A stretch of DNA of 64,000 bases from an uncultured Verrucomicrobiota bacterium. Its GTDB lineage: Bacteria > Verrucomicrobiota > Verrucomicrobiia > Verrucomicrobiales > DEV007. Position numbers and translations under genes: made by a program. The notes beneath the pieces are model-generated. The model searched no databases and was not told where the DNA came from. It worked only from the letters and a program-made list of their open reading frames with translations. The number at the start of each line of letters is the position of its first letter. The first letter of the stretch is position 1. Shown one piece after another: positions 45,563 to 64,000 of the stretch. The DNA is taken from positions 116 to 64,115 of the forward strand of contig CACIUL010000010.1 in NCBI GenBank assembly GCA_902589825.1, in the 5' to 3' direction.

Positions 45563-46525
45563 ATGAACAATCACAGGCAACTCAATCCCTTGCTTTGGTT
45601 AAGGGAAAACCCGATTGCAACAGCTCTTTTGCTCACAATCACCGGGACTCTCGTTTATTTTTACGGTGCCATAGAGCTATTTGGCAATTATCGCAAACAA
45701 ACGGTGATTTACTGGATATGGGCTATTTGCGGCAAAACAGAGTATGATTACGGTCACGGTCGCTTTGTGCCTTTGGCGATGGCGTTTTTAATCTTCCGGG
45801 CACGAAAAAAAATCCTTTCTGCCCCGCGCTCAAGCGAATGGTGGGGGCTGGCCATCCTGATATTGGGAATATTCTTCTATATTGTGGCGTATCGCACCAT
45901 TCAGGCCAGGGTAGCGGCAGGGTCAATCCCGTTTGTCTTGTATGGGCTCATTGCGTTTATCTGGGGCCGGCATGTGGCCCGGCACTTCATATTTCCTTTA
46001 ATACTTGTATATTTCGCCATTCCCCTGCCCGGCCTTACACAGGCAACCAACGGCCTGCAGGTTATCGCCACGCAGATCGCATACCATGTCTCATCAATCT
46101 GTGGTGCCGATATTATCGCCGCGGGGACAAACATTCAGTCAGCGGCAGGAAAATGGGATGCCCTGGCCATCGCCGAAGGGTGCTCTGGGGTCAGGTCTTT
46201 AATAGCCCTTACATTCATTGCGGCTGTATACGGCAACCTGACCCAAGACAAAGTATGGAAACACATCGTTCTCATCGGTGTTTCAGTGCCCCTGGCAATC
46301 CTTGCCAATTCTATAAGGGTCACCACCATTATCTTGATCGCTGAATACGGGGATGCGGAATTTGCAGCCAAGACCTACCACAATTTTTCCGGTTTCATCT
46401 TCTTCCCGATGGGTCTTGCAGGGCTGCTGCTTTGCGGTTTCCTGATCAATGGCGGCTGGAAAAGGGAGCGTCAAAAAACAACCACGAGGATTATTCAATC
46501 AGGTGCTGAGAAGCCCCGCGAATAA
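45563..46525 (+). CDS. Exosortase (EpsH-family transpeptidase)
   Basis: 320 aa, polytopic. Candidate catalytic Cys in IAEGCSGVRSL, Arg in LANSIRVTTI, and His in KTYHNFSGFIFFP. It sits immediately upstream of an EpsI gene. Confidence 0.8.
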   Translation: MNNHRQLNPLLWLRENPIATALLLTITGTLVYFYGAIELFGNYRKQTVIYWIWAICGKTEYDYGHGRFVPLAMAFLIFRARKKILSAPRSSEWWGLAILILGIFFYIVAYRTIQARVAAGSIPFVLYGLIAFIWGRHVARHFIFPLILVYFAIPLPGLTQATNGLQVIATQIAYHVSSICGADIIAAGTNIQSAAGKWDALAIAEGCSGVRSLIALTFIAAVYGNLTQDKVWKHIVLIGVSVPLAILANSIRVTTIILIAEYGDAEFAAKTYHNFSGFIFFPMGLAGLLLCGFLINGGWKRERQKTTTRIIQSGAEKPRE

Positions 46526-46534
46526 AGAATAAGC

Positions 46535-47239
46535 ATGATTTGTAAACTGCTCATCACCCAGGCTGTTCTGGGCATTGGCCTCAGCGGAATCTACCTGCTG
46601 CCCGAGACCGTCAGCATGAGGCAGTCGGCGATTGTCATGAGTCTGCCCTCAGACCAGCCAGGCTGGAAATTCGAGCCTTCCGAACCCTCAAAACAAGTCC
46701 TCGATGCCCTTGCAGATGATACTGGTCATGAACAAGGTTTCTATTATCGAACAACCCCGGGAAGAATTGGAAAACTGGATTTAATCCGGGCTTATATTGT
46801 CCTTTCCGGTGAAGACATGAACAACAGTATTCATCGCCCTGAACGTTGCCTTTATGCGCAGGGTTTTGAAATACTGGATTCACAAACTATTGATATTGAA
46901 GTGGGTGAAGGCGTTACCATACCTGCTCAAAAGCTGACCGCCGAACATCGCTCATCAGGCATCAAGCAGGTATCCTATTACTGGTTTACGGGCGCTGAGG
47001 TAATTACTTCAAGCCATTATCAAAGAACTCTAACGGACATATGGGACAGGTTGATTACCGGCACCAATCAGCAATGGGCCTTCGTGACAATCTCGGCCTC
47101 CCTCAATGGTGAACCTCCCCTGACCCACCATGATGAGCAATACACTAATAAAATGCTCAGCCAATTCATCAGCGAAATTTTCCGCAAGATCCATAAGGTC
47201 GAACAACTTGGTGGAAAATGGAATCCTGCCGGGCCATAG
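46535..47239 (+). CDS. EpsI-family exosortase-associated protein
   Basis: One TM helix followed by a periplasmic domain with the motif HRPERCLYAQGF. It starts 9 nt after the exosortase stop. Confidence 0.75.
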   Translation: MICKLLITQAVLGIGLSGIYLLPETVSMRQSAIVMSLPSDQPGWKFEPSEPSKQVLDALADDTGHEQGFYYRTTPGRIGKLDLIRAYIVLSGEDMNNSIHRPERCLYAQGFEILDSQTIDIEVGEGVTIPAQKLTAEHRSSGIKQVSYYWFTGAEVITSSHYQRTLTDIWDRLITGTNQQWAFVTISASLNGEPPLTHHDEQYTNKMLSQFISEIFRKIHKVEQLGGKWNPAGP

Positions 47240-47270
47240 CTGAGTTGCCGCCATCCCAACTGTCCGGCCC

Positions 47271-48173
47271 ATGAAAATCATTCATCCAAGCCTGTACCGT
47301 CGTCCTGAGCTCTTCTTCAGGCCTTCACAAATTATCCGCAGAATCCTGTGGGAATTCAAACGCCCAAAAAAGAATGTACTAGTGAGTTTACCTTGGGGTT
47401 TACAGGTCAATGTCTCACCCAATGACCGGATAGGTGCCTCAATTCTCAAAACCGGCAGCTACGACACGGCAGTCCTGGAATGCCTGTACCGACTGGTGGA
47501 TGAGGAAGACCTCTGCCTGGATATCGGGGCAAATTTCGGGCTGATGACCGGAGTGATGGCCCTGGCCGCAGGCAAGAGGGGCAAGATTATCGCTTTTGAG
47601 CCGCACCCGGAAATAGCCAGCAGCCTGCAAGAGCATATTGAAAGATGGCGGGAGACTCCCCGCCTTGGCACCATTCAGGTCATCAACAAGGCCGTAAGTG
47701 AGAGAGCCGGAACGGCACAACTTGAAATTCCAGGGGAATTCCACTGCAACCGCGGGACAGCAAGGATTCATCAAGCAGGAGAGACCGGGGAAACAATGAA
47801 GCTGATCAAGGTCGACACGATCTGCCTGGATAATTTACTTGATGATCCCCAAGTAAGAATAGGAATGCTCAAGATTGACATCGAAGGACATGAAAAAGCC
47901 GCGCTTTCCGGCGCGGCTGGCTTATTAAAACGCGGTGCAATCCGCGATATCATCTATGAAGAGCAGGCTGAATATCCTTCCCCTGTCAGTAAATACCTGG
48001 AGCAGTTCGGGTATACAATCTACCTGATCCGGAAAGGTCTGCTGAAGCCCATTCTGATGCCTCCTGAGACTCCGCTTTATGAGCTGGGTAACTATTTGGC
48101 CACGCGCAATCCACAAAGGGTGGAAAAACGCATCGCCAACAAGGGTTACAGTATACTGCGCAACCTCTGTTAA
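47271..48173 (+). CDS. FkbM-family methyltransferase
   Basis: CLDIGANFGLMTGVMA...IIAFEPHPE...LKIDIEGHEKAAL. Confidence 0.75.
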   Translation: MKIIHPSLYRRPELFFRPSQIIRRILWEFKRPKKNVLVSLPWGLQVNVSPNDRIGASILKTGSYDTAVLECLYRLVDEEDLCLDIGANFGLMTGVMALAAGKRGKIIAFEPHPEIASSLQEHIERWRETPRLGTIQVINKAVSERAGTAQLEIPGEFHCNRGTARIHQAGETGETMKLIKVDTICLDNLLDDPQVRIGMLKIDIEGHEKAALSGAAGLLKRGAIRDIIYEEQAEYPSPVSKYLEQFGYTIYLIRKGLLKPILMPPETPLYELGNYLATRNPQRVEKRIANKGYSILRNLC

Positions 48174-49264
48174 GCGCTCCCGCCAGGAAGCTCAAACTGT
48201 GAGGATTCAGGGTAGAGCTCCTCCATGAACTGCACGAAATGCTCTATCTCACTGGGAGAAATATCCACACCACGCTCCTCCTGGATACAAAAAGCCCGGC
48301 CGCTCATCCTGCGAATCCTCTCTGCAACCTTTGAATTTTCATCACCTGAAAGACCCCAGCAATACATATCCTTCTCAAGCAATCGCGGCGGCACCAGGTC
48401 CGCACATCGTGCCTGACAAGCAAGATATGGGACGAGAAAACTGTGTAGGGCATACATCGAGGTGGAACGAAACCGCGATGCGCGTGTCGCTTCGAAAGCT
48501 TCTGGAAATCGCTCAGAGGCAAATTCCAGCAACAGCTTGTTGTGGGCATATGGACGATGCATGACAGTAAGGCGGGCATGCTTGCCGAAGCATTCATCAA
48601 GCAAACGGTTGACGTTCTTGTGCCCGGCCGAATCGCCTTCTTCCTCAGGAGAAGGCATTCCTTTTGGGGAAAGTGCTCGACCAAGTCGCACCCTGATCAA
48701 TCCGTCAGAAGCATAATACTGCCCAACATCCATTTCCCGACGGAGGAAAAAGTCATCGTTGAAATATATAAACCGGTCACTTAATCCGGGAATATTAAAG
48801 AAATAAGATTCTATGGCCTGGGTATTGTAGTTCGGGTAATGCGCAGGGTCAGTAATGATGTCTTTTGCCTCCACGACACGAATCTTCGGATGATCAATAT
48901 CAAGCCATGCAGGCAGTTGTCCATCGACCACGATATGGATTAACCGTACTCCCTTCAGGTAACGATCAACCGAGCGCAAAGAATAGCGCAATTCATCAAG
49001 TGAACTGGTTGGCCGCTTGGTCTGGATTCCTATGCGGCAGAAATCATCACGGGTTTCATCCTCAAGCACCTGCTGACGACGCTCTGCCCATAAATCATCA
49101 CTGGGGTCGCTCCAGAGATACACGACATCAACATCCCATATATGCTCACGGGGCCCCCGCCTATAACGCATGAAAAGATGGCGCAACTCAACAATGCCGG
49201 AAACAGTGACTATGCGGGATATCTCAAAAATCCGCACTAGGCTTCTTATGATCCTGGCTAACAA
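48170..49264 (-). CDS. Stealth-family protein (capsule-type hexose-1-phosphoryltransferase-like)
   Basis: Stealth conserved regions are visible: DVDVVYLWSDPSD (CR1), LDELRYSLRSVDRYLKGVRLIHIVVDGQLPAWL (CR2), and NTQAIESYFFNIPGLSDRFIYFNDDFFL (CR3). TTG start in the ORF track; an ATG alternative lies downstream. Confidence 0.75.
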   Translation of the reverse strand: MLARIIRSLVRIFEISRIVTVSGIVELRHLFMRYRRGPREHIWDVDVVYLWSDPSDDLWAERRQQVLEDETRDDFCRIGIQTKRPTSSLDELRYSLRSVDRYLKGVRLIHIVVDGQLPAWLDIDHPKIRVVEAKDIITDPAHYPNYNTQAIESYFFNIPGLSDRFIYFNDDFFLRREMDVGQYYASDGLIRVRLGRALSPKGMPSPEEEGDSAGHKNVNRLLDECFGKHARLTVMHRPYAHNKLLLEFASERFPEAFEATRASRFRSTSMYALHSFLVPYLACQARCADLVPPRLLEKDMYCWGLSGDENSKVAERIRRMSGRAFCIQEERGVDISPSEIEHFVQFMEELYPESSQFELPGGSA

Positions 49265-49433: not shown

Positions 49434-51425
49434 TCACGGGATAACCTTGGCAGCCTGTCGATCTTTCAGCTGTTTTATCAAGGCCAGGGCACTCTTTGCC
49501 CCTGAACCTGCGCGATGCCCGCGGGGAGCCCCCTGCACGAAGAATTCAGGCACCCTCTTGAACTCTACAAGGGCCAGTTTTGCCTCCTTGGCTGCATCCT
49601 GCAATCGCCCAATCCTGTTTAAATAATAGGCATAATTGAGGCGGTAAAGGGCATGGGCTTCACGTGGCTTATACTTGGTCGGCGCCAGTGAGATGGCATT
49701 TTCAAAATGCTCTCTGGCACTCTGCCAGTAACCGCCCGCATCGGAAGCAGCGCCATGCCATGCGAGAAACATTTCACAATTACCTGCTCCGATATGGGAA
49801 AACCCATCAAAAGGATGTATTTCAATTGCTTTCAGGTAGGCAGCACGGGCCTTGCCTTGAAATTGTACTTTCACAAACGCCGGCAAGTTAGCTTCCTTTT
49901 TGAAATACCTGATCAGCCCCAGGCTGCGCCAGGGGTCGGCATTGGACGGGTCAAGCTCGATTGCCTTCTGGAGATGAACAACAGCCAGGTCAGGGCTGCC
50001 TCCCTTGACCTGCAAATGCCCCTTCTCCAGTTCCCAGCTGGCCTTGCCAAACCGTGCAAAAAAAACAACCAGGGCAATCCCGCACAATGCAGCTGCCCAG
50101 CGTATGCCGAGGTCAACACCAGAATGCCCGGGTTGATTGTCCCTGGGCTTGGGATTAGCCACAACGGCCAAGCAAAATACAATTGCCAGCCCGGTAACCG
50201 GCAACCTGACATGAAAATCCACAAAGGCCTGAAAGAGGTGCGCGCCAATAACCGCCAAGGCCCCGGCCACGAGGGCAAACTCCAGGGAATCCATTGAAGA
50301 CCGATTGGCATGGTCCCGCGACCGGCAATGATCACGTATTTTTCTGGCAGCATGGAAAACATGCGCAAAGAGGACAAGCAATACCAGCAAGAGTCCTACA
50401 ATGCCGTATTCAGCCGCCTGTTGAAGATAATCATTATGGGCAAACTCAGGATCGCGTTGATGGAACGGTGCCTCTGGAGGACGATACGCAGGATATTGGT
50501 AATGAAAGCTTCTTGCACCTGTGCCGAAAACCGGTGCTGAAATCCACTGGTCAATGGCACCTGCCCAGAAATTACCCCTTGAAGAAATTGAAAAAGCCTG
50601 ATCGACAGAATCGAAGCGCTTACTGAAGGCGGAAAAGGCAATGATCCCGACAACACAAGTGATAGCGACAACCCCAAATGCCCACCGGGTAATGTTCCTC
50701 ATGGCCCACTGAGCCTTTCCCTGGCCGCGAAGCCTCATGAAAAAAATGATGGCTAGAATCATCCCGCCGGGCACCAATCCCAGGAACACACCCCGGCTCT
50801 GGCTTAAGGCAATCCCTACAAGCGCAATTGCCGCACAAATAAGAGTTGCCGCCCTGATCGATTTCGCCACATGCGCAAACACTCCAATAGCAACCCCGAA
50901 GAGGACCGTGATCACAAGGAACCCGGCAAAATGCGGGTGCAGGTTGAAAAACCCCCCCGGTCGCAAAAGCTGCCCACCTGATCCCTGTCGCTCATAACCG
51001 GGTAAAATATTGAAGCCAAGATCAACCTGTAGTTGATAAACTGCTATGCATGTGTTCGCGATGCCAAGCAGAAGTAATAGAAAAAGAAAAGACAACCGGG
51101 CACGTGAACCGGACAAACACGTTGAAAATACAATATAAAAACCGAACAGGGTAAGTACCAGGATGACGTCAAGCCTTGCCAGGTAAGAAACCGGTGACAT
51201 CGAGGCACGGGTAACCATGTAAGCAAACAATGCCACCACGGCAAGGTAACAGAAGAGCGGTGGGCGGACCCTTTGATCCTTGCAGCGAATCAGTGGCAAC
51301 ATTACAAACCCGAGCCCCAGCAGCATCAGTCCCGGCCACTGGAAAACGACCTTGGTGCCGGTTCCGACCACTCCAATCCACAGGTAACCCAGCAAAATCA
51401 CGATAACCAAAAACGCACGCATCAT
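49434..51425 (-). CDS. O-antigen ligase/polymerase-like (Wzy_C) membrane protein fused to C-terminal TPR repeats
   Basis: 663 aa with about 10 or more TM helices. Wzy_C-like loop (LSQSRGVFLGL...FGTGARSFHYQY...EFAHNDYLQ). The C-terminal ~200 aa is TPR-like (AVVHLQKAIELDPSNADPWRSLG...AAYLKAIEIHP). Confidence 0.7.
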   Translation of the reverse strand: MMRAFLVIVILLGYLWIGVVGTGTKVVFQWPGLMLLGLGFVMLPLIRCKDQRVRPPLFCYLAVVALFAYMVTRASMSPVSYLARLDVILVLTLFGFYIVFSTCLSGSRARLSFLFLLLLLGIANTCIAVYQLQVDLGFNILPGYERQGSGGQLLRPGGFFNLHPHFAGFLVITVLFGVAIGVFAHVAKSIRAATLICAAIALVGIALSQSRGVFLGLVPGGMILAIIFFMRLRGQGKAQWAMRNITRWAFGVVAITCVVGIIAFSAFSKRFDSVDQAFSISSRGNFWAGAIDQWISAPVFGTGARSFHYQYPAYRPPEAPFHQRDPEFAHNDYLQQAAEYGIVGLLLVLLVLFAHVFHAARKIRDHCRSRDHANRSSMDSLEFALVAGALAVIGAHLFQAFVDFHVRLPVTGLAIVFCLAVVANPKPRDNQPGHSGVDLGIRWAAALCGIALVVFFARFGKASWELEKGHLQVKGGSPDLAVVHLQKAIELDPSNADPWRSLGLIRYFKKEANLPAFVKVQFQGKARAAYLKAIEIHPFDGFSHIGAGNCEMFLAWHGAASDAGGYWQSAREHFENAISLAPTKYKPREAHALYRLNYAYYLNRIGRLQDAAKEAKLALVEFKRVPEFFVQGAPRGHRAGSGAKSALALIKQLKDRQAAKVIP

Positions 51426-52555
51426 GGATTGCCTTCCTCCTTCCCAATTACGGCATCAAATACCTCGCGCATGCCTGTGAGGAAGGCACCCTGTGTGTAT
51501 TTTGAAACATATCTGGCTTCTGCCGCTAGAGACATTGCCTGGTTTTTCTTTCTATCTGTCATTACAGCCTCAATGGCATCTGCAAACTGATCGGTAGAGC
51601 TCACGTCGCAAAGTATCCCTGTCTCTCCTTCAACAACCATTTGCGGAATACCGCGCCAACGGGTTGCCACCACGGGAAGGCCGAAAGCCATTGCCTCAAT
51701 AAGCACAAGGGGGAAATTCTCGCTCTCGTAATAAGATGGGAAAAAGAACAGGGAAGCTTCCTTGTAAAGCATCCATTTCTTATCACCCGTGATTCGTCCA
51801 TGCACGACAATGGAGTCGGCAACATCCGCCTCCTGCACGGCAGCCTCAAATCGGCGGCGGGTATCTTCCTCCTGCCAGGGCCCCGCAACATCAAGCATGA
51901 AGTCCATTCCGCGGGCTTTCAGGGCTGAAGCTGTGTGGACAAGGTCCATCACACCCTTTGTTTTGCGCAGGCCAGCCATGTAGAGAATCCGAAAAGGCAG
52001 TTTATCAGGACTTGTCCCCGGATCACTATTCACGCCGGGAACATCCAGGCCATTGGCAACATGGAACTTTTGCTCAGCAACAAACTCCACGCCCGGACCA
52101 ATCTCACTTTTGGAAATCTCAATGCTGGCCTTCGCCCGTCCATAGGCACACCGTGCAAGGAAGCGCAAAAAGGGATTCAGTGAAGCCACGTATGCCGGCA
52201 ATCCACCGGCATGGTAGTGCAGTATCATCCCCCTGGAAAACGGCCTGACCGCAAACAGGTAGACGATATCCCTCAACACGGGGATCAGGTTTGGACTAGC
52301 AGGGGGATAATAGATAAAACAGGGACGGTTACGGAGAAGAATCCACCAGGATTTAACTATTAATGCCATTAAATGGAATAGTTTACTGATGCCGAACTTC
52401 CCGACATCAGCCTCTCCACTGCTGTATGCCATACGCAGACGTAACACCTTCAGACCTGGCCAATCATGATCAAAAAGAATCTTGGTCGCCACCGCCTGCC
52501 CATGGAAGGGTGGCGGGGTCTGGCCGACAAGGAGAATTGAGGCTCGCTTAGACAC
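51422..52555 (-). CDS. Glycosyltransferase, GT4 (group 1) family
   Basis: EX7E region FFFPSYYESENFPLVLIEAMAFGLPVVAT...GETGIL. Its stop overlaps the downstream start. Confidence 0.8.
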   Translation of the reverse strand: MSKRASILLVGQTPPPFHGQAVATKILFDHDWPGLKVLRLRMAYSSGEADVGKFGISKLFHLMALIVKSWWILLRNRPCFIYYPPASPNLIPVLRDIVYLFAVRPFSRGMILHYHAGGLPAYVASLNPFLRFLARCAYGRAKASIEISKSEIGPGVEFVAEQKFHVANGLDVPGVNSDPGTSPDKLPFRILYMAGLRKTKGVMDLVHTASALKARGMDFMLDVAGPWQEEDTRRRFEAAVQEADVADSIVVHGRITGDKKWMLYKEASLFFFPSYYESENFPLVLIEAMAFGLPVVATRWRGIPQMVVEGETGILCDVSSTDQFADAIEAVMTDRKKNQAMSLAAEARYVSKYTQGAFLTGMREVFDAVIGKEEGNP

Positions 52556-55048: not shown

Positions 55049-58000
55049 TCAGGACCTCGGGGAAATCCTGACCCGGTAAAATCCCTTTTCACCGGCAGGT
55101 GGGCGCAAGACGACCTTCTCAATCCCGTCACCTATATAGTTACGCGTCAATGCAGATTCGGGAAGCGCCTCCCAAGTATTTTCATCGGTAAGTTTCTCGA
55201 GATACGTTTTGTAGTAATGCCGGAAAACAGCACGTGACCTCTGAAACTCAATGACAGGAAACTTCAGATCTTCGATCCCGGCCTCCAGCCGGTAAACCGA
55301 ACCTGCATCCCCGGGATTTCCACCAAAAACAAATTCCATGAAGTTCGGCTGTAAGTCCCCGTCATCATCCTGGGCACCATCCGCGGTGCCTACTTTAAGG
55401 CCGGATTGCAATTCCCACCTGTCATGCATGCCGTCATTGTCAGCATCCAGCCACTCCGCCGGGCTGCTGCCTTGAGCAAGTTCATCAATGTTGTTCACCC
55501 CGTCGAAGTCATCGTCCCCGGAAGAGTCATCAGACAATGGATCCAAGCGGTTCCCAAGTTCCCAACCATCATGCATGCCATCACGGTCCGTATCTGCAAG
55601 GAGCTGATCCGTGCCTGCTATGATCTCTTGCCGATACGCTACACCGTCGCCATCGAGGTCCTCATCAGGGTCATTCACCAGGTTAATGGTAAGAATCGCA
55701 TCTGCAAAATTAATGCCATCTCCTGCACGGACCTTGATCTGCAACATGCTTGTTCGGGATAAAATCTTCTGATTAAGCCGCAAGCCCTGGGGAATATCCA
55801 GCTGCCCATCACCGCGACGCCCCCATCCAACCAGTGTGCCATCGGACTTCAACGCTATACTGTGATAGCCTCCTGCAAAAATGGCGATCACGCCTGTCAA
55901 TCCCTCGGGAACACCTGCCTGCCCATAATTATTGCGGCCCCAGGCCACAACAGTGCCATTTTCCCTGAGGGCAAGGTTGTGGTAACCGCCTGCGGCAAGG
56001 GCCACTACATTTTTTAAACCGGCAGGCACAATCCTTTGGCGATAGGTATTATGCCCCCACGCAGCAACGGTGCCGTCAACCTTCAGCGCAAGGCTATGCA
56101 GATATCCGGCGGCAATCGATGTCGCCGGGCCAAGACGTAATGGAACATTACGCTGCCCGTGAGTGTTTAAACCCCAGGTAACAATCGTTCCTTCATGATT
56201 CAGTACCATGGAATGATGCGCCCCTGCCGCTATAGCACGCACCTCACCCAGCCTGCTTGCCGAGGGCACATTGGCCTGTCCGTATTGATTACGCCCCCAG
56301 GCAACCACCCTGCCGTTAGCCTGCAAGGCAAGGTTGTGATATCCGGAAGTGGCTATTGCCGTGGCCCTGGACAGGTCCAAGGGAACATCTGCCTGCCCAT
56401 AGTTATTGGCCCCCCAGGCAACCACAACACCATCCTCCTGCAGGACCAAGCTGTGATAAAACCCTGCCGCAATCGCAATGGGCGAACTCATCTCGATAGG
56501 AACAACAGCCTGACCATCATTATCCCTTCCCCACCCGGTAACGTGCCCATCTGACCCGAGGGCAACGGAATGATAACCACCGGCAGCAACAGGAATACTC
56601 CGGGCGAGATCATTCAAGTCACCGGAATCATTAACCAAAAGGCGGTTGCCCTCGATTCTGAAGGCAGGATTACCGTCATGATCAGGGTCCTCATTATTGA
56701 TGATATCATATTCGATAATATCGCCATTAGGATCCATAACAGGCAAAACCCCTATAACCGTGTTGAGCGTGCTGGTTCTTGAAATGGAGAAATTTCGCTC
56801 AGAGAATGTCGGAGGCAAATCCGGGACGCTGAGCGGATCATTAGGGTCGGTGCCAAGGGAAAGCTCCTCGCCATCGTCAAACCCGTCACCATCGGTATCC
56901 TGCAGGGTAAAATCAGTGCCATAATGCACCTCTTTGACATCACTTACCCCATCACCATCAGTGTCCAGGCCAGAATTGTTTACTAGCGGGTTCCAGTTGT
57001 TGGCTATCTCCCAGAAGTCATCAAGTGTATCCCCATCAGTATCCGTTAACCTTGGATTTGTGCCTTGCCCAAATTCCTCAAGGTCAGTCAATCCGTCTGC
57101 ATCCGAGTCGCCTTGGGTGTCATATTTGAGGGGATCAATCCCATGCTTGTCTTCCCAGCCATCAGGCATCCCGTCTCCATCGGAATCCGGGTTATCAGGA
57201 AAGGTGCCGAGTTTGTTTTCTTCCACCAAACTCAAGCCATCATTATCGGTATCAATAACGGAGTCATCACGACGCGGATTCCAATTGTTATTAACCTCCC
57301 AGAGGTCAGTAAGTGTATCTCCATCGGTATCTTTTAAGAGCGGATTGGTACGGTTGCGAAATTCCACTATGTTGGTTAATCCATCATTATCAGGATCTTC
57401 CCCGGGGCCATCAACACTACCGTATTCAATCTCCCACCAATCGCTCATGCCATCGCCATCACTATCCATCATGCCCAGCCCAGATGACTGGTATTTTGCA
57501 CATAGCATGGCTTCAACCTCTCGTCTGTCCACATGACTCAAGGCCTGGGAGTAAGTAACCACTTCACTATAATCGGCTGGCTGGTATGCCAAGCCGCCAA
57601 TATGCCCAATCCACAATGAGCGGTCATTGGGTGGTATCAGTCCTTCAACCCTGGCCTGCTCCTCACCATCGACATACATCCTGCCCTCTTCATTGAAACC
57701 ATCATATACCAGGGTGACTATCCGTAATTTTTCCCTGTCCAAGCGCCTGAACGAGCGCACCGATAGCGGCTTGTCAGGCTGTGTTGAATAGAAATGCAGG
57801 TAACCTTGATCCAAAGTGAGCCTGAATCCGCTTTCACGCCAAACACTGTTGCCGGCTAGTGCATAAGTGCCGGCGGATACACCCTCCGAGCGCATTTTGA
57901 CCGCCATGATCAACGTCCATCCTCCCGATGCAGCATCCCCAAAGACCAAACCATTTCTGGTCTTTAAGCTGCCCGGACCAAAAGAAATCCCTGGATAACC

Positions 58001-60109
58001 ATTGATCAGTTCCCCCGTCATCACGGGAGCCTCGTGATTATAAGGCCTGCTCATCCTTATCTCTCCATCATCTTTCCACCCTTGCCATGGGGTAATCTTG
58101 CCGGATTCATTCATCGAGAGTGGTCCATTGGACTTAAGCCACATAGTGAGAGCAGCACTGGGAACAGCCCCCAATAGCGGATTACGCAGGCGTGGCATCG
58201 TACCCGACTCAAACTCTTCAATGTTATTCAGGTCATCATGATCCGGATCGTCAAGGGAATCGGCAGCCAGAGGATTCAGCTCATTCTGTATCTCCCAGCC
58301 ATCAGGCATCCCGTCACTATCCGTATCATCAAGGATGGGATTTGTGTCCGAAAAGTACTCCTCCAGGTTGGTGACTCCATCCTCATCAAAATCATCGCCT
58401 GAATCTTGGCGACGTGGATCCAGCCCATGGAGAATTTCCCATTCATCGGGCATCCCGTCACTATCATTATCAATAAGCTGATCTGGATCTGGATCAAGAA
58501 ACGGTGCCTTAAGCTCTGAATAGCTTACCCCTGTTATTGCCTGAATAAGAGCATCCAGTTCTGGATTATTGTTGTTAAAAAATGACTTGTGCCTGCCTAT
58601 GAATTGACTTCCCTCATCCTGACCAATTCCCCGCCATTCCCTCCATTTGTAGTATGCGCCGACAAACTCCTCCTCACTATCACCTTGTGAATACCAGTGG
58701 AAACTGCCCAGGGAAGGAGCGCCCGTGTAATATGTATTACGCTCCCAAAGATTACCTGCTTCAAGGAAATCCTGATAGACATCCCAGCCAAAGCTGCCGT
58801 ACTGCAGGCCGTTATATCCGCCTTTCGGCATCACAATTACATTGTCATGAATATGATTGTGCTCAGTAATATGTGTTCCACAAACCCCATCCGTATGACT
58901 CGGGCGGTGCTGATTAATAATTGAGATCCCGCCACCTCGTGCACCTTCATCCGGTGCGGCTTCAAAATAATTATGGTGCACATTGGCTGACTCGGAATTC
59001 TGGATCACAAACGGGACTCCCCACAACAACCCCCCCCGGGGAACCAGTCCATTCCAGCGGAGGACATTATTGCGTATTTCGCAATTGCAACTCAACTCAA
59101 AGAGTAATCCCTCCCAGGAATTATATTCACTGAGGTTTTCCTCGAACAGGCTGTCATGGGAGTTGATATCAAACCAGAACCCCGGGCCTGTATTATGGTG
59201 TGCATAATTGCGGCGAACAACCATCCCCTTGGACCCGGGCATCTTGGCGCCACCCCTCGACCAGTTACCCGAAAATCCCGCCCATCCATTATAGGCAAAC
59301 TCACAGTATTCTATCACCGTATCCTGCCCGCCATCATGCAGGCCCGCCAGGCCATTCCAGAGAAACCTTGAATTTTTGACATGTGAATAACTGCTGACAC
59401 GGATACCTGTGGCATGACATCCACTGATCATACATCCATCAATTAAGGCGTTCTCGCCCAAATGCACTGCCGCACTTTGACCCACCGTGGGAAATTTTTC
59501 ACAATGTATATTTTTTAAACTCACATCAGGCGCACTTGTCCTGATCGCGTATCGGCACAGACCGCTCAATTCCATCTTCTTTTGCGTAGGATCAAAGCGT
59601 ATATAGATTTTGTCCGCTTCATAATCATAGGCCCAGGAATTCTCATCATGCACCAGGGCAGGTGCGTATTTCTGGATAATCGGAAGATCATCAGCAAAAA
59701 GGTCATGTGGCCACCTCGCCCGCAATTCCCAATAATGCGCTGTCGGGTCATGCTCAGGAACCGCTTTCGAATGCGGCCCATCATGCACCCAGAAAGGATC
59801 TTCAAACCGCCATCCATCAAGTAACTCTGCGCCTGAAAGAACTGCCCCAGGTTGTCCCGACAAGCTATCGCCAGCTTTCAATACGAGTTCGTGACCACGG
59901 TGTATACCTGTCTCCAGCTCATATACACTGCCTGCCGGATGACTGTCTATTATGGCCTGTAGATCGCCATTATGTGGAAGCAAAATGACATCTTGAGCCC
60001 TAACTGATGGCCAAATGTATATGATGGCCATGCAGAAAAGCGCAGGCAGCTTGAAGCCCGGGGCTGACATAGGTTTCAGCAAAAATTGCGGCATTCGGTT
60101 ACCCGGCAT
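55049..60109 (-). CDS. Giant secreted multidomain protein: parallel beta-helix + TSP3-like Ca-binding repeats + LamG-like + cadherin-like + 7 RCC1-like repeats + C-terminal DxDGD...GFYRVRI module
   Basis: 1686 aa with a signal peptide ending VRAQ. The PbH1-like repeats run approx nt 58600-59960. DxDxDG..D..E repeats form three blocks (approx 58190-58500, 56830-57480, 55390-55690). The LamG-like region is approx 57500-58160. Seven G(G/F)YHS.AL...G.V..WG.N..GQ units lie at approx 55790-56600. Confidence 0.8.
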   Translation of the reverse strand: MPGNRMPQFLLKPMSAPGFKLPALFCMAIIYIWPSVRAQDVILLPHNGDLQAIIDSHPAGSVYELETGIHRGHELVLKAGDSLSGQPGAVLSGAELLDGWRFEDPFWVHDGPHSKAVPEHDPTAHYWELRARWPHDLFADDLPIIQKYAPALVHDENSWAYDYEADKIYIRFDPTQKKMELSGLCRYAIRTSAPDVSLKNIHCEKFPTVGQSAAVHLGENALIDGCMISGCHATGIRVSSYSHVKNSRFLWNGLAGLHDGGQDTVIEYCEFAYNGWAGFSGNWSRGGAKMPGSKGMVVRRNYAHHNTGPGFWFDINSHDSLFEENLSEYNSWEGLLFELSCNCEIRNNVLRWNGLVPRGGLLWGVPFVIQNSESANVHHNYFEAAPDEGARGGGISIINQHRPSHTDGVCGTHITEHNHIHDNVIVMPKGGYNGLQYGSFGWDVYQDFLEAGNLWERNTYYTGAPSLGSFHWYSQGDSEEEFVGAYYKWREWRGIGQDEGSQFIGRHKSFFNNNNPELDALIQAITGVSYSELKAPFLDPDPDQLIDNDSDGMPDEWEILHGLDPRRQDSGDDFDEDGVTNLEEYFSDTNPILDDTDSDGMPDGWEIQNELNPLAADSLDDPDHDDLNNIEEFESGTMPRLRNPLLGAVPSAALTMWLKSNGPLSMNESGKITPWQGWKDDGEIRMSRPYNHEAPVMTGELINGYPGISFGPGSLKTRNGLVFGDAASGGWTLIMAVKMRSEGVSAGTYALAGNSVWRESGFRLTLDQGYLHFYSTQPDKPLSVRSFRRLDREKLRIVTLVYDGFNEEGRMYVDGEEQARVEGLIPPNDRSLWIGHIGGLAYQPADYSEVVTYSQALSHVDRREVEAMLCAKYQSSGLGMMDSDGDGMSDWWEIEYGSVDGPGEDPDNDGLTNIVEFRNRTNPLLKDTDGDTLTDLWEVNNNWNPRRDDSVIDTDNDGLSLVEENKLGTFPDNPDSDGDGMPDGWEDKHGIDPLKYDTQGDSDADGLTDLEEFGQGTNPRLTDTDGDTLDDFWEIANNWNPLVNNSGLDTDGDGVSDVKEVHYGTDFTLQDTDGDGFDDGEELSLGTDPNDPLSVPDLPPTFSERNFSISRTSTLNTVIGVLPVMDPNGDIIEYDIINNEDPDHDGNPAFRIEGNRLLVNDSGDLNDLARSIPVAAGGYHSVALGSDGHVTGWGRDNDGQAVVPIEMSSPIAIAAGFYHSLVLQEDGVVVAWGANNYGQADVPLDLSRATAIATSGYHNLALQANGRVVAWGRNQYGQANVPSASRLGEVRAIAAGAHHSMVLNHEGTIVTWGLNTHGQRNVPLRLGPATSIAAGYLHSLALKVDGTVAAWGHNTYRQRIVPAGLKNVVALAAGGYHNLALRENGTVVAWGRNNYGQAGVPEGLTGVIAIFAGGYHSIALKSDGTLVGWGRRGDGQLDIPQGLRLNQKILSRTSMLQIKVRAGDGINFADAILTINLVNDPDEDLDGDGVAYRQEIIAGTDQLLADTDRDGMHDGWELGNRLDPLSDDSSGDDDFDGVNNIDELAQGSSPAEWLDADNDGMHDRWELQSGLKVGTADGAQDDDGDLQPNFMEFVFGGNPGDAGSVYRLEAGIEDLKFPVIEFQRSRAVFRHYYKTYLEKLTDENTWEALPESALTRNYIGDGIEKVVLRPPAGEKGFYRVRISPRS

Positions 60110-60117
60110 TTCTTATA

Positions 60118-61239
60118 TCATGGTTTCAAGGAAGGACTTGTGAGCTCCTGCAGAAAAGCCATGCGCTTGCCCTCCCAGTATTCACTGCCTACGTAAGGGC
60201 TGACTTCCTCCAGGGAAATACGTCGTCCTGTCATCGTGTTGACAAAGTCCATGATCTTATCCTTCGCAACAAGAATTCCACCCGGGTTGTTGGGAACCTT
60301 AAGGACCCAATCCGGTGTATCTCTGCCCAAAAAGGCAGTGTCCTCATAAGGCAAGATGACAGGTAATCCTGCCGCTAAATAATCCCGAACCTTCAATGGA
60401 CAGGCCTCTTCCATGTCTTTGGTATGGAGTCCCGCTGTACCCAGCCCACACGAGGCACCCCTAAAAACATTCTGAAATTCCGTTTCATTAAGAAATGAAT
60501 GCCATTGCACATTTACAGGCAGCCTGTGCCGGGAAGGTTCATAGCCGGCAACCAAGTCAAATTCGAGTTTTCCTTTGGTCTGCTCTGCAAGCTTGAGGAC
60601 ATCATCAACGCCGTGCCACGGATTGTCTGCACCAATCATGTAGACCACCCGGGGTAACCCATCAGCACATCCCTCAAATCTGACCGTGGACTTGCCGGCC
60701 AAGTTTGTCGAGTTGGGAATGGCCATGGTTGGCATTCCTGCCAATTGCACTTTCCGGTTATCAAGAATTTCCTGAGTCACTCCAATGAACGCTGCTGCAC
60801 ACTTTTCAAACTTTGCCCCTGTTGCCAGGTAATAAAGGTATCTGAGCCTGTCTACAATACTAGTCTTTGCCCTGCTCTTGAACTCACTGTTATAAATAGC
60901 ATTGAGCTCAATGCAGGTAGGAATTTCCAGCATCAATCGAGCTAGAGAAGACTTATAAAACTCCCACCGCAAATAATTAACATCGGGATTGAAATCCCTT
61001 ACTGCATTGCAGAGTTCCCTGTATGTTTTCCGGTTGGTTATTAAGGCCAGAGGATTATTCCAGATTCTCCGTCGTTGAAAAATATTCGCTGGGAATGGAG
61101 CGTCTGTTTTGAGATAGCTAGCACAAAAAACCTCAACCTCATGGCCAAGTGCGCGCCATGCATTCACCTGTTGTTCCACCTTGCTGGTAACCCCGTCCCG
61201 TTGACGAAGGTTCCATGTCAAAATATATGCAATCCTCAT
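60118..61239 (-). CDS. Glycosyltransferase (GT-B fold, GT4-like)
   Basis: 373 aa, starting MRIAYILTWNL. The C-terminal half has a GT-B-like sugar-donor region (GLPVILPYED). The assignment is weaker than for 51422-52555. Confidence 0.55.
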   Translation of the reverse strand: MRIAYILTWNLRQRDGVTSKVEQQVNAWRALGHEVEVFCASYLKTDAPFPANIFQRRRIWNNPLALITNRKTYRELCNAVRDFNPDVNYLRWEFYKSSLARLMLEIPTCIELNAIYNSEFKSRAKTSIVDRLRYLYYLATGAKFEKCAAAFIGVTQEILDNRKVQLAGMPTMAIPNSTNLAGKSTVRFEGCADGLPRVVYMIGADNPWHGVDDVLKLAEQTKGKLEFDLVAGYEPSRHRLPVNVQWHSFLNETEFQNVFRGASCGLGTAGLHTKDMEEACPLKVRDYLAAGLPVILPYEDTAFLGRDTPDWVLKVPNNPGGILVAKDKIMDFVNTMTGRRISLEEVSPYVGSEYWEGKRMAFLQELTSPSLKP

Positions 61240-61357
61240 TTAAGAAAATTTCTTATGTCCACATTGTGATGGGAATTACCTTTTGCGCAAACCAGTTACA
61301 ACCCCTGATTCATCCCCTCCCGCCGGCAAAAAAATGTACTGCATACTTAATCTGATT

Positions 61358-63373
61358 CTACTCAGCCTTGAAAAGATCCCCGTCAACCCATGACTGTAAA
61401 CACAGGACTCTCCACAGGTTACGGTAATGGCGTAGTGAAACCCTATTGCCGGCCAAGACATACCTCCCCAGCTTATTGACGCGACGCACATCACAAAATT
61501 GACCAATCCGCGAAGAAGGATCTCGTAACCTTTCTTCCCGTGCACGATATACCTCGGGAACAAGCTCGTGCTCCGGCGTCTCAAAACCCACCTTGTCCTT
61601 TCGCCAGACAACTTTATCGGGCACTAGTCCCGAAAGAGCCTTCCTCAATACCCATTTCGTCCACCCGTCCTTCAACTTGTGCTCCGCCGCATTGCGAAAG
61701 GCATGCTCTACCAGACGAAAATCTGTAAACGGAACACGTGCCTCACGACTGAATGCCATGGAATTTCTATCCTCCCAGTGCAAAAGCCTGCCGAGGTTAA
61801 AATCTGAAACCATGGACCGTAACGAGTCTTCCAGGCTGCGGCAATGAATCACATTCTCAAATCTGCGGGTAATAAAATCGGAGTATTCCTTGGAATTCAC
61901 AGCATTAAGTAAGCGCCTCGAGAGGTAACGGTAATAACCGCACCTGCCGCCAAATCCACGCGCTTTATCAACCAGTAGAATGCCCCGACTCTTTAAGCTT
62001 TTAATGATCAGATCACTCAACCCAAATCCGGAAGTCCTGCGCATTGTTTGTAACGCCCGGAACCCTGCTCTATAACCCTCCTTATCAATGGTCTGGCGCA
62101 ACAGTACCGCAAACGGTCTGTACCCACCATAGAGCTCGTCTGCTGCCTGGCCGTCCAGCAAAACAGGCGTGTGCTGGTTTTGAGCCTCCTCCATCACGCA
62201 CCACTGTGCAAAAATACTTGTCGTTGAGAAAGGTTCCTCCTGGTGATAGACCAACCGATCAAGGTCCCTGTTTAGTTTCTCTGCAGTGGGGAAAGTGTAA
62301 TGACTCGCAGACTTGTAATGTTGGCTTACCAAATCAATGAAATATTTCTCATTGTAACGCCCCTCTGATTCATAAACCGCACTGAAGGTATTGAATTTCG
62401 CCGATGCGTTAACACCAGCCAAGTGATTGGTGGCAAGTCCAACAATGCCTGATGAATCAATCCCTCCACTAAGGCAACTCCCCACCCTGACATCCGCCCG
62501 CAAACGCAACTTGACCGCATCGCTGAGTAGGTGCTGTAATTCCTCAATAACCTCCCCAGAAGACCTTACCTGTGGAGAAACCTTGACATCACTCAGGTTC
62601 CAAAAACTTCCCACATGGGTCCTGCTTCCCACGCAGACCTGCAAATTATTCCCGGGAGGCAGTTTCCGGACACCTTGAAAAAAGGTGTCGCCCGTAGAAT
62701 CCTCTGGATATGAGGACTTCGCCATGAACAACATGGTATAAATATCATCTACCTCGGGAGGCTTGCGGGAAATCCGGAACAGTGCCTTGAATTCTGAAGC
62801 AAAGCAAAAGCCCTTCTCATCGTCGGTATAGTTTAAGGGCTTAATCCCAAGCCGATCCCTTGAGATCCAGACTAATGGCCTGGCACCGCGCAAATCAAGA
62901 ATCGTGAAAGCCCACATGCCATTGAACCTGACCACGCAGTCTTTCCCCCACTGCTCATATGCAGATAAAATGACTTCTGTATCTGTTCCTGTTTTAAAGT
63001 GATGCCCTGCACTTTCGAGCTCCTGCCTTAACTCGACGAAATTATATACCTCACCATTGAATACAATCACAAGGTCACCCCTTGCATTGGACATTGGCTG
63101 GTGACCCAGCAATGAAGTGTCCTGTATGGAAAGCCGGCGATGGGCAAGAACCAGATCAAAGTGTCCTCCCGCTAAATTTTTGACATTGGGCAAACCGGTA
63201 CCCCTCGGTGAATCCTCTCCGCTGCAATAGTGGGATTCGCCTGTTTGCGTGTTCATCAGGAAATACCCTTCATCGTCAGGTCCGCGGTGCCGCTGCAGGT
63301 TATTGGCCTCAACCAGCCGATGAATATCAACAGCTGACCCGTCTTTTTTAAATTGACCGAGGATCCCACACAT
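61358..63373 (-). CDS. Asparagine synthase (glutamine-hydrolysing)-like amidotransferase, EPS/exosortase-locus type
   Basis: N-terminal nucleophile MCGILG and PP-loop SCLSGGIDSS. 671 aa. Confidence 0.8.
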   Translation of the reverse strand: MCGILGQFKKDGSAVDIHRLVEANNLQRHRGPDDEGYFLMNTQTGESHYCSGEDSPRGTGLPNVKNLAGGHFDLVLAHRRLSIQDTSLLGHQPMSNARGDLVIVFNGEVYNFVELRQELESAGHHFKTGTDTEVILSAYEQWGKDCVVRFNGMWAFTILDLRGARPLVWISRDRLGIKPLNYTDDEKGFCFASEFKALFRISRKPPEVDDIYTMLFMAKSSYPEDSTGDTFFQGVRKLPPGNNLQVCVGSRTHVGSFWNLSDVKVSPQVRSSGEVIEELQHLLSDAVKLRLRADVRVGSCLSGGIDSSGIVGLATNHLAGVNASAKFNTFSAVYESEGRYNEKYFIDLVSQHYKSASHYTFPTAEKLNRDLDRLVYHQEEPFSTTSIFAQWCVMEEAQNQHTPVLLDGQAADELYGGYRPFAVLLRQTIDKEGYRAGFRALQTMRRTSGFGLSDLIIKSLKSRGILLVDKARGFGGRCGYYRYLSRRLLNAVNSKEYSDFITRRFENVIHCRSLEDSLRSMVSDFNLGRLLHWEDRNSMAFSREARVPFTDFRLVEHAFRNAAEHKLKDGWTKWVLRKALSGLVPDKVVWRKDKVGFETPEHELVPEVYRAREERLRDPSSRIGQFCDVRRVNKLGRYVLAGNRVSLRHYRNLWRVLCLQSWVDGDLFKAE

Positions 63374-63498
63374 TGAACTACAGTTGCTTTGAAAAGCTTG
63401 TTTGCCTGAACCTACATAGTGCTACGCACCGATCATGGCTTTCCCTAAAATGAGGCTGACCGAATATATCCATCTTCTGTTTGCGGCATTGGGGACAG

Positions 63499-64000
63499 TT
63501 ACCCGGCAGGATCGTGAATCAGTTCTTCAATGATCTCAGCTGCAGTTTTGCCTGCCCGGCCAAAGTTGGACAGGATACGGGAACGACAATCTTTAATCCG
63601 TTCAACACTCTGCCCGGGTTCGCTCATGAGACGGCGGCAGGCCTCCACCACCGCGTCTGGCGAGCATTCACAAAGTGCACCAAGGTTCTTGCGTTCGCCA
63701 AGTTCAATGGGTTCAATGTCAATCGACTTGAAATCATGATTGAAAACCTTGACCGGCACCTCGACAAAAACCACGGGGCGCTCCATGACAAAAGCATACT
63801 CGAATGCCACACCCGAATAATCGGAAATCATCAAATCGGAGTAAAAAAAGCTGGCACTCTTATCGGATGGATCCTCGTAGGTAAAGCCATCATCACTGTC
63901 AAACCTCTCACGAATTTCAACAACTGCCTGAAGGTTGTTCCTTAGAATTCCGGGATGCGGGCGAAGCGTTACTCCAATACCCGCCTCCCTTAATTTACCC
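63499..64000 (-). CDS. CDP-glycerol glycerophosphotransferase (TagB/TagF)-like protein, N-terminus outside window
   Basis: The hand-translated frame stays open to the window end (GKLREAGIGVTLRPHPGILRNN...FFYSDLMISDYSGVAFEYAFVMERPVVF). The C-terminal TagF-like pattern is SDYSxxxFEY...RPxxF. Confidence 0.6.
   Translation of the reverse strand, partial: GKLREAGIGVTLRPHPGILRNNLQAVVEIRERFDSDDGFTYEDPSDKSASFFYSDLMISDYSGVAFEYAFVMERPVVFVEVPVKVFNHDFKSIDIEPIELGERKNLGALCECSPDAVVEACRRLMSEPGQSVERIKDCRSRILSNFGRAGKTAAEIIEELIHDPAG

Follow-up and report, generated by a model that had tools for sequence, protein, structure and literature searches.

We analyzed a 64-kb stretch of DNA from a marine Verrucomicrobiales bacterium (called the window below, at its full length), and in particular the locus at 45563-64000, which carries an exosortase-EpsI gene pair followed by a run of genes for surface-glycan enzymes. 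On balance, we favor the interpretation that this locus is a strain-variable Wzy-type polysaccharide island with phosphodiester-type decorations, which lies beside the exosortase-EpsI pair and holds part of a probable phosphoramidate cassette with a TagF-like transferase. On this view the island, which differs from strain to strain and from species to species, makes a cell-surface polysaccharide and spans ~25 kb or more, of which roughly two-thirds can be seen in the window. Genes were called from a listing of open reading frames (ORFs) together with profile searches of Pfam, TIGRFAM, and NCBIfam; scores are given in bits against the cut-off of the model. The genes of the locus, with protein lengths in amino acids (aa), are as follows:

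45563-46525, plus strand: exosortase, 320 aa (PF09721, E=2.9e-48; TIGR02602, 133 bits against 105.6)
46535-47239, plus strand: EpsI, 234 aa, with an N-terminal transmembrane segment (PF11984, E=2.9e-17; TIGR02914, 51 bits against 42.8)
47271-48173, plus strand: FkbM-family S-adenosylmethionine (SAM) methyltransferase, 300 aa (TIGR01444, 89.6 bits; PF05050)
48170-49264, minus strand: Stealth-family hexose-1-phosphate transferase (Stealth_CR2, E=1.4e-33; CR3, 4.7e-8)
49434-51425, minus strand: Wzy_C-TPR membrane protein, 663 aa (PF04932, E=1e-21; TPR_11/TPR_1)
51422-52555, minus strand: GT4 glycosyltransferase, 377 aa (PF00534, E=2.4e-34)
52617-53312, minus strand: CDP-alcohol phosphatidyltransferase-family membrane protein, 231 aa (PF01066, 55 bits against 22)
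53454-55001, minus strand: second Wzy_C-family membrane protein, 515 aa (PF04932, 49 bits against 31.7)
55049-60109, minus strand: secreted giant beta-helix/TSP3/LamG/RCC1 protein, 1686 aa
60118-61239, minus strand: GT4-like glycosyltransferase, 373 aa (Glyco_trans_4_4 and Glyco_transf_4 matches weak, below cut-off)
61358-63373, minus strand: AsnB-type glutamine-dependent amidotransferase, 671 aa (TIGR01536, 407 bits against 267)
63499-64000, minus strand, truncated by the window edge: 3' end of a TagF-like gene, C-terminal 166 aa (PF04464, 31.9 bits against 22.1)

A sequence-only reading of this DNA had named these genes; all of them were found where it placed them, and the profile searches backed their families. 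The same-strand array beside the exosortase and EpsI genes does encode phosphoryl-transfer enzymes of three classes (Stealth, TagF-like, and CDP-alcohol transferase), and the gene for the giant secreted protein sits inside that array as claimed, separated by exactly 8 nt from the preceding glycosyltransferase gene and by 47 nt from the Wzy-like gene. The left boundary of the island is sharp: by profile search, ssb, pth, L25, and prs fill 42113-45351. GC content drops across the island from ~0.53-0.56 to 0.48-0.51. Two gene pairs share 4 nt each: the 3' end of the FkbM gene runs into the convergent Stealth stop, and the stop of the GT4 gene (51422-52555) runs into the Wzy_C-TPR start.

The sequence beyond the truncated TagF-like gene was read in two relatives. 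Metagenome contig L082 overlaps window positions 64000-63146 at 95.7% nucleotide identity and runs 6.4 kb further. L003, a contig of a Verrucomicrobiales metagenome-assembled genome, has the same gene order as L082 at 74% nucleotide identity; its AsnB protein is 80% identical to that of the window. Upstream of the TagF-like gene lie, in order, genes for a 413-aa polytopic membrane protein, a 290-aa Fmt-like protein with a borderline Formyl_trans_N match, orf175 (~150-175 aa), and a 257-aa nucleotidyltransferase (NTP-transferase); then, further upstream, a 214-aa peptidase-C26/GATase protein and a 1021-aa PPDK_N/PEP-utilizers protein. The full TagF-like gene encodes 393 aa in L082, and the full-length L003 protein matched PF04464 with 41.4 bits against 22.1. 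A profile built from four homologues matched TagF in the PDB (3.8e-8) and also TarL and Cps3D. Residues R240-P241-H242 align with LRMH of TagF, placing a His at the conserved position of the catalytic region.

The proteins encoded farthest upstream point to a phosphoramidate pathway. The 1021-aa protein scored 931 bits (cut-off 501) with the NCBIfam equivalog NF004508, in an alignment that covers positions 5-786 of the 789 in the model. NF004508 is presumably the Cj1418 model, with which its length accords (789 vs 779 aa). Three homologues that are 45-48% identical to the 1021-aa protein are annotated 'glutamine kinase' by JGI; the glutamine-kinase homologues tested were those of L003, L082, and L084 (a relative described below), all outside the window. 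The C26 protein matched NF045546 (gamma-glutamyl-CDP-amidate hydrolase) best, at 3.5e-35; the runner-up family reached 3e-11. In the relatives, the sizes of the kinase, C26 protein, and cytidylyltransferase (791+230 / 214 / 257 aa) and their order match those of Campylobacter jejuni mpnA, mpnB, and mpnC, which are Cj1418, Cj1417, and Cj1416, of 779, 200, and 253 aa (PMC7901785). Together with Cj1415, the products of these three genes convert glutamine, ATP, and CTP to CDP-phosphoramidate 3'-phosphate (PMC11800397). Because the N-terminal ~230-240 aa of the 1021-aa kinase are 21-29% identical to the neighboring cytidylyltransferase in each locus, the N-terminal extension appears to be a second nucleotidyltransferase domain. 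No APS_kinase or P-loop protein of the Cj1415 type was found in the window, L082, L003, or L084, and orf175, at the position corresponding to Cj1415, has no Walker motif; the pathway would thus be a kinase-less variant.

The same genes occur together in other lineages. The fused kinase of ~1020 aa had 1452 matching proteins at E<1e-30; at least 120 were listed, almost all of them full-length and 44-92% identical, and the hosts among the matches listed included Proteobacteria, Nitrospinota, Anaerolineales, and Haloarcula. Many of these fused forms are labeled 'choline kinase' by JGI. In Acidovorax kalamii the cassette runs mpnA (48% identity), C26 (43%), methyltransferase, cytidylyltransferase (54%), methyltransferase, a 162-aa protein, Fmt-like (34%), membrane protein (32%), TagF-like (37%), NAD-synthase-like, and AsnB (42%). 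This order is collinear with L082 plus the window; therefore, the TagF-like and AsnB genes of the window belong to the mpnA cassette. On Vibrio alfacsensis plasmid pYa108, mpnA, C26, and cytidylyltransferase genes are followed directly by a gene for a 360-aa PF04464 protein (23.2 bits), and this unit (L094, record positions 119751-133444) adjoins GT4 genes and a gene annotated by PGAP as 'XrtA/PEP-CTERM system amidotransferase'. In Roseovarius pelagicus, likewise on a plasmid, the gene just before mpnA encodes a 410-aa protein whose PF04464 match is borderline (21.2 bits), and in Haloarcula a PF04464 gene lies 7 kb from mpnA. The fused form (~1020 aa; L003:1571-4636, L090, L091, L093, L094, L095) usually adjoins a divergent TagF-like gene. 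In Azospirillum lipoferum (L096), an unfused 784-aa mpnA is preceded by genes for a SAM methyltransferase and an 846-aa protein with a C-terminal APS_kinase domain, an arrangement that resembles Campylobacter. From these comparisons we infer two pathway architectures: unfused with a kinase (Campylobacter, Azospirillum), and fused, kinase-less, and TagF-linked (this lineage and several others).

The AsnB gene was a less useful guide to context. Its product scored 323 bits with TIGR03108 (XrtA/PEP-CTERM amidotransferase), below the cut-off of 817, and an exact-sequence look-up of the protein gave no match. A genome scan anchored on AsnB returned 79 loci, with synteny shared by close relatives only; AsnB is a poor synteny anchor because it is too promiscuous.

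More tentatively, the TagF-like and AsnB genes may be the tail of a widespread cassette that installs phosphoramidate on surface glycans in many phyla, with no 3'-kinase. The lineages behind this suggestion are Verrucomicrobiota, Beta-, Gamma-, and Alphaproteobacteria, Nitrospinota, Chloroflexota, and haloarchaea. If it is true, TagF-like proteins would form a phosphoramidate transferase class of their own, so far undescribed, and chemistry like that of Campylobacter would be common in the ocean.

Several observations weigh against the phosphoramidate interpretation of the island. The mpn-like genes were seen in close relatives (95.7% and ~75% nucleotide identity), outside the window itself, and the comparison with Cj1418 was through a model, protein length, and gene order, that with Cj1421/22 through protein length. 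With 122 bits, the C26 protein fell short of the curated NF045546 threshold of 250. For the cytidylyltransferase, neither a specific model nor a PDB entry supported an identity as a phosphoglutamine enzyme, and PDB searches with the glutamine-kinase, C26, and cytidylyltransferase homologues returned generic relatives only, with no Cj1416-1418 entries. The 413-aa membrane protein had no match in the PDB or in Pfam; in Pfam this held even at E=5, as it did for orf175 and the N-terminal 240 aa of the kinase. The Nitrospinota context is without a TagF-like gene and has a dissimilar CDP-OH transferase instead. The TagF-like enzyme could use another CDP-linked donor, and for this organism the phosphoramidate pathway is predicted from genes by analogy. 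Finally, neither a priming transferase nor any export gene turned up in the window or in the relatives' sequence examined. The sequence-only reading had noted this lack: no Wza, Wzc, priming transferase, Wzx-type flippase, or PrsK/PrsR match was present among the ORFs in 45563-64000, and profile searches of the remaining 42 kb of the window gave no Wza/Wzc, priming transferase, or regulator genes. It proposed to look for export and priming genes past base 64000; in the extension read in L082 and L003, neither kind was found. The missing flippase, of which none was found at 45563-64000, is partly an artefact of the window edge, since a polytopic membrane protein and a nucleotide-activation pathway lie beyond it.

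The island differs among relatives that share the exosortase. Exosortase identities to the window were 80% for L084, 67% for L085, 64% for L089, 51% for L086, 47% for L087, and 42% for L088. The contexts with glycan genes were as follows:

L084: prs, then exosortase-EpsI-FkbM convergent on Stealth/Wzy_C-TPR/GT4/CDP-OH, then directly cytidylyltransferase/C26/mpnA
L085: CDP-OH gene replaced by a methyltransferase; Wzy_C and a 1281-aa beta-helix protein retained
L089, at the same site: WecG, epimerase, methyltransferase, Stealth (39%), several glycosyltransferases, GT2
L086, with different flanks and on one strand: GT4/1294-aa beta-helix/Wzy_C/GT4/epimerase/WecG/exosortase/EpsI/two CDP-OH genes/two Wzy_C-TPR genes

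L084 is without the block of Wzy_C, giant, glycosyltransferase, AsnB, TagF, membrane-protein, and Fmt genes, and a 56-aa remnant of orf175 lies at the junction (region L084:16800-19000). L084 and L003 are 93.5% identical in the mpn region, yet a block of ~13 kb, from the 3' part of orf175 through Wzy_C, is present in one and absent from the other. This difference represents either strain-level presence or absence, or an assembly that joined strain variants. L086 keeps several of the families, rearranged and without Stealth, and in L087 and L088 the exosortase-EpsI pair has no adjacent glycan genes. Because the contexts in L084 and L086-L089 differ, the genes are in part non-syntenic units in related genomes. 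The proposal that the locus is one fixed novel system thus held for the assignments, the array, and the embedded giant, but not for gene content, which in the synteny check varied among relatives. We conclude that the exosortase-EpsI pair is a conserved anchor beside variable glycan cargo.

The exosortase itself keeps the conserved motifs EGC207, NSIR252, and YH273 (Cys207/Arg252/His273) and matched the exosortase signature TIGR04178 with 67.8 bits against 23. Among subtype models, XrtA scored best (154.8 bits) but under its cut-off of 208, and no subtype cut-off was reached; by its profile scores the protein is XrtA-like but not assignable to a subtype. An XrtA subtype with PrsK/PrsR was not supported, the XrtA cut-off being missed and no regulator genes being found in the 64-kb window. 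Exosortase homologues hold the same site adjoining prs in L083-L085, L087, and L089. Wherever EpsI is intact, in six homologous contexts, it comes after the exosortase; in L083 the alignment is limited to a fragment of 47 aa. FkbM follows EpsI in L083-L085 and is absent in L086-L089. A regular-expression screen found no PEP-CTERM tails among the ORFs of the window. The screen works, because it recovered two canonical VPEP tails in L088. The C-terminus of the giant protein (...GFYRVRISPRS) has no PEP-CTERM tail; therefore, the giant protein is not an exosortase substrate.

These results bear on the earlier view of the locus as an integrated exosortase-dependent glycopolymer system, for example one in which sorted proteins are attached to the phosphodiester polymer. 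Of seven homologous contexts, five (L083-L086 and L089) have glycan genes next to the exosortase-EpsI pair, and in L086, where the flanks differ, the pair is on the same strand as, and between, GT4/giant/Wzy_C/GT4 and the CDP-OH pair with Wzy_C-TPR. Homologues of epsH are, moreover, nearly always found among exopolysaccharide (EPS) genes (Haft 2006, PMC1569441). However, in L083-L085 and L089 the housekeeping flanks are conserved too, and hence much of the adjacency there is not independent evidence. L087 and L088 have the pair without glycan neighbors, glycan content differs between relatives, and neither a PEP-CTERM substrate in the window nor such a tail on the giant protein was found. We consider an integrated system unlikely. 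Exosortase and glycan genes are frequently but not obligatorily associated, and relatives have other combinations than the one in the window; the exosortase-EpsI pair is a conserved neighbor of the island, as is usual for exosortases, and not a demonstrated component of it.

A second explanation is a classical teichoic-acid-like poly(alditol-phosphate) capsule. The TagF-like protein would then polymerize units from CDP-glycerol or CDP-ribitol, more phosphodiester units would come from the CDP-OH transferase and Stealth, and the glutamine-kinase homologues would have no part in it. PF04464, PF01066, and Stealth domains are all present, capsule polymerases of the TagF-like and Stealth types are established in Gram-negative pathogens, and Cps3D, TarL, and TagF are the nearest solved relatives of the TagF-like protein in the PDB. 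No genes for CDP-glycerol or CDP-ribitol synthesis (TagD, TarI/J) were found in the window, L082, or L003, however, and cytidylyltransferases occur solely in the mpnA-C26 cassette. The TagF-like protein is, in addition, a short single-domain protein of 393 aa and accompanies mpnA in four to five lineages that are not related. A capsule of this kind is therefore improbable, and a phosphoramidate cassette remains our preferred account of the TagF-like gene.

The other island enzymes were assigned as follows. In the Stealth protein, CR2 (115.8 bits) and CR3 (33.3 bits) were both over cut-off, CR1 (19 bits) was under 27.2, and CR4 was undetected. The full-length protein matched CpsY (PDB 8j2n) at 1.6e-34 and the GNPTAB catalytic domain at 2e-31; judged by these matches, membership in the Stealth family is very likely. 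The alignment with CpsY starts at residue 43, and the called start of the ORF is a TTG. The true start is probably Met32 at 49171, the TTG being too far upstream, which would widen the gap after the Wzy_C-TPR gene to ~260 nt. The GT4 gene (51422-52555) has orthologues in L084, L085, and L086. The GT4-like protein (60118-61239) has a 78% identical orthologue in L003 and identical copies in two short, near-identical JGI metagenome contigs, neither of which reaches past base 64000.

Of the two Wzy_C proteins, the second, with ~10 hydrophobic segments, is a candidate polymerase; its gene comes immediately after that for the giant protein in the window, L080, L085, and L086. The Wzy_C-TPR protein has ~13 hydrophobic segments by hydropathy and a C-terminal TPR domain, is like O-antigen ligases and polymerases, and has orthologues in L084 (67%), L085 (46%), and L086 (31%). 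It might instead be an O-oligosaccharyltransferase of the PglL/TfpO type that decorates secreted, possibly PEP-CTERM, proteins with a phospho-substituted glycan. O-oligosaccharyltransferases are members of the Wzy_C family, a periplasmic TPR domain suggests protein binding, and the gene recurs beside exosortase/EpsI in L084-L086. The match to the O-linking oligosaccharyltransferase TfpM (NCBIfam, E=0.002) was weak, at 17 bits against a cut-off of 600; the second Wzy_C gene and the secreted beta-helix carbohydrate-active enzyme (CAZyme) fit a polymer better, and acceptor proteins were not identified. Protein O-glycosylation thus seems a doubtful alternative to a polysaccharide island.

In the CDP-alcohol transferase, the signature D-x2-D-G-x2-A-R-x8-G-x3-D-x3-D reads D82xxD85G86xxA89R90x8G99x3D103x3N107, with Asn in place of the last Asp. 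That final Asp is generally regarded as the catalytic base of these enzymes. A full scan of 1.84 billion representatives returned seven relatives at E<1e-30; at the looser E<1e-10 there were 68. Among the 16 closest relatives listed, position 107 was Asn in 12 and Gly in 3; remoter relatives keep Asp. On this sequence evidence, the protein is a member of a small, distinctive Asn-variant clade. As a phosphotransferase it could decorate an unusual acceptor; alternatively, it could be linked to exosortase function. The latter idea came from the layout of L086, where two CDP-OH_P_transf genes directly follow exosortase-EpsI, and from a weak match (E=2.6e-4) to the NCBIfam model 'protein sorting system archaetidylserine synthase'. 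Archaeosortase ArtA needs an archaetidylserine synthase, and by analogy the transferase might make a lipid or head group that receives exosortase substrates, an idea that its small distinctive clade also favors; this is very improbable, because the gene lies 5 kb off, on the opposite strand and inside the glycan operon, is swapped for a methyltransferase in L085 and absent beside exosortase-EpsI in L087-L089, and encodes an Asp-to-Asn change at the proposed catalytic base that makes canonical phospholipid synthesis doubtful. A role as the phosphoramidate transferase, suggested by the adjacency of CDP-OH and cytidylyltransferase genes in L084, was rejected as weak, because that junction is a deletion scar with the 56-aa orf175 remnant and the Nitrospinota CDP-OH protein is dissimilar to that of the window.

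The giant protein consists of a signal peptide, a right-handed beta-helix (CAZyme-like), TSP3 repeats, LamG, TSP3, an RCC1/BLIP-II propeller, TSP3, and a C-terminal domain. Pfam placed Beta_helix at aa 219-380 and scored Laminin_G_3 at 31.6 bits against 27.6; there are seven RCC1 repeats, and the propeller is nearest BLIP-II (PDB 1jtd, 8e-43). An AlphaFold2 model of aa 38-545 (15 sequences) had a mean pLDDT of 85.7 and a pTM of 0.89. Foldseek searches of the PDB with this model returned GH120 XylC (1.6e-12), BT_1002, and GH110; the A-modules of the mannuronan C5-epimerases AlgE4 and AlgE6 (target TM-score 0.54-0.67); and also alginate epimerase/lyase, Klebsiella K1 capsule lyase, and PL6 lyases. 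At a TM-score of ~0.5 such fold likeness is generic and does not separate hydrolase, lyase, and epimerase. CBM and NPCBM domains occur on homologues of the beta-helix module. The triplet of glycosyltransferase, giant, and Wzy_C genes recurs in L080, L085, and L086. The L086 homologue (1294 aa) is 50% identical over 1080 aa; relative to it, the window protein has a lineage-specific insert at ~aa 1090-1495 with extra TSP3 repeats and the RCC1 propeller. The most economical reading of the model is that the giant protein would be an extracellular Ca-dependent enzyme acting on the finished polymer, like AlgE epimerases or depolymerases. Its C-terminal domain (~190 aa, residues ~1495-1686; minus-strand span 55049-56200) is 39% identical to that of the L086 homologue and has neither a Pfam match nor a PEP-CTERM tail; FYRVR stands near the C-terminus in the window protein and YFRVR in L086. 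This domain might be a sorting or anchoring module.

In motif scans, promoter-like and terminator-like motifs were no more numerous than in shuffled sequence, and thus these scans do not define operons. The strongest terminator-like hairpin of the region (47897-47918, minus strand; 8-bp stem with 7 G-C pairs, then a T-run) lies 250 nt downstream of the Stealth stop, within the convergent FkbM coding sequence. Scans of the window for Rfam families and tRNAs gave no matches. The other ~42 kb of the window hold housekeeping genes and genes typical of the Planctomycetes-Verrucomicrobia-Chlamydiae (PVC) group. Three further regions are listed here:

2235-4556, plus strand: 773-aa subtilase with a proprotein-convertase P-domain, not related to the island
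15507-19523, plus strand: PSCyt1/PSCyt2/PSD1 protein (757 aa), then a DUF1501 protein (495 aa), a pair typical of Planctomycetota/Verrucomicrobiota and in agreement with the taxonomic placement
24470-26089 and 26123-26947, both minus strand: adjacent ORFs of 539 and 274 aa without a Pfam match at E<=0.001

For the island as a polysaccharide locus with a phosphoramidate cassette, we propose the following mechanism, in which the enzyme families were taken from sequence and the individual roles are conjectural. GT4-type glycosyltransferases would assemble a lipid-linked repeat at the cytoplasmic face, with the priming enzyme encoded elsewhere, and Stealth would attach hexose-1-phosphate by a phosphodiester linkage. 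The TagF-like enzyme would be one member of a cassette, shared horizontally, that begins outside the window and extends from the fused mpnA-like kinase to AsnB. This cassette would make a CDP-activated phosphoryl donor, most likely cytidine diphosphoramidate by analogy with Cj1418/Cj1416/Cj1417. Enzymes of the TagF type act on CDP-activated phosphoryl donors and displace CMP; such chemistry on a CDP-amidate, we infer, would give a sugar phosphoramidate, the TagF-like enzyme moving phosphoramidate to a sugar hydroxyl with release of CMP. AsnB would amidate a carboxyl group, FkbM would methylate a sugar or the phosphoramidate oxygen, and the 413-aa membrane protein is a candidate flippase. One Wzy_C protein would polymerize the repeat, and Wzy_C-TPR would ligate or transfer the glycan. 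Outside the cell, the giant beta-helix protein may modify or trim the polymer in the manner of AlgE epimerases or capsule depolymerases. The exosortase and EpsI would process PEP-CTERM proteins encoded elsewhere.

Comparison with known systems shows both likeness and difference. Like the PEP-CTERM/EpsH-EpsI loci (PMC1569441; TIGR02602, TIGR02914, TIGR03108), the locus has a Cys/Arg/His exosortase with EpsI adjacent, and an AsnB-type amidotransferase, GT4 enzymes, and Wzy_C/O-antigen-ligase-like proteins nearby. It differs in that the XrtA and TIGR03108 cut-offs were missed; no PrsK/PrsR/PrsT, Wza/Wzc, priming transferase, or PEP-CTERM protein is in the window; Stealth, TagF-like, and CDP-alcohol transferase genes are added; and glycan neighbors are variable or absent in relatives. 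With the O-methyl phosphoramidate (MeOPN) genes Cj1415-Cj1422 of C. jejuni (mpnA-D, two methyltransferases, and MeOPN transferases), the cassette shares homologues of the kinase, hydrolase, and cytidylyltransferase in the same order and of similar sizes, the setting in a surface-polysaccharide locus, and a SAM methyltransferase nearby. Here, however, the kinase has an extra N-terminal nucleotidyltransferase domain, no Cj1415-type kinase is found, the methyltransferase is of the FkbM type, the candidate transferase is TagF-like and 393 aa long rather than ~610-640 aa as in the Cj1421/22 type, and the genes, predicted to encode such a pathway, lie just outside the window and were read in close relatives.

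The same phosphodiester enzyme families make up the TagF-like and Stealth polymerases of Neisseria meningitidis serogroups A/X, Actinobacillus pleuropneumoniae Cps3D, Mycobacterium tuberculosis CpsY, and TagF/TarL. Those systems have ABC transporters (group 2 capsules) or build Gram-positive wall polymers, whereas the island has two Wzy_C proteins and no CDP-glycerol or CDP-ribitol genes. Azotobacter AlgE epimerases and capsule lyases or depolymerases resemble the giant protein in signal peptide, right-handed beta-helix, Ca-binding repeats, and polysaccharide-locus setting; the giant differs from them in having TSP3 and not RTX repeats, in its LamG and BLIP-II/RCC1 domains, and in that the DPHD-type epimerase motif was not seen. 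The sequence-only reading knew of no described system with this composition, and within the literature library that was searched no paper was found that combines an exosortase with Stealth. The individual parts belong to known families, and the exosortase link itself is ordinary. What is new is the way in which the families are combined, a glutamine-kinase pathway that is kinase-less and TagF-linked, a clade of CDP-alcohol transferases with the Asn variant, and the domain architecture of the giant protein.

To our knowledge, phosphoramidate glycan biosynthesis has been worked out only in C. jejuni, and the chemistry has been shown mainly in Campylobacter capsules. In C. jejuni, phosphoramidate glycans control the attachment of phages and resistance to serum, and MeOPN gives a 31P-NMR signal near 14 ppm (PMC7901785). 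As late as 2019, a review described MeOPN-modified sugars as confined to Campylobacter (PMC6429109). The present analysis points to a second architecture of the phosphoramidate pathway, kinase-less and TagF-linked, in an island of marine Verrucomicrobiales. Because a collinear cassette is present in the cultivable Acidovorax kalamii, Vibrio alfacsensis, and Roseovarius pelagicus, this idea is directly testable. The exosortase-EpsI pair marks a hotspot of surface-glycan gene turnover, even between near-identical strains, and such turnover matters for the phage-host and grazing interactions of abundant marine heterotrophs.

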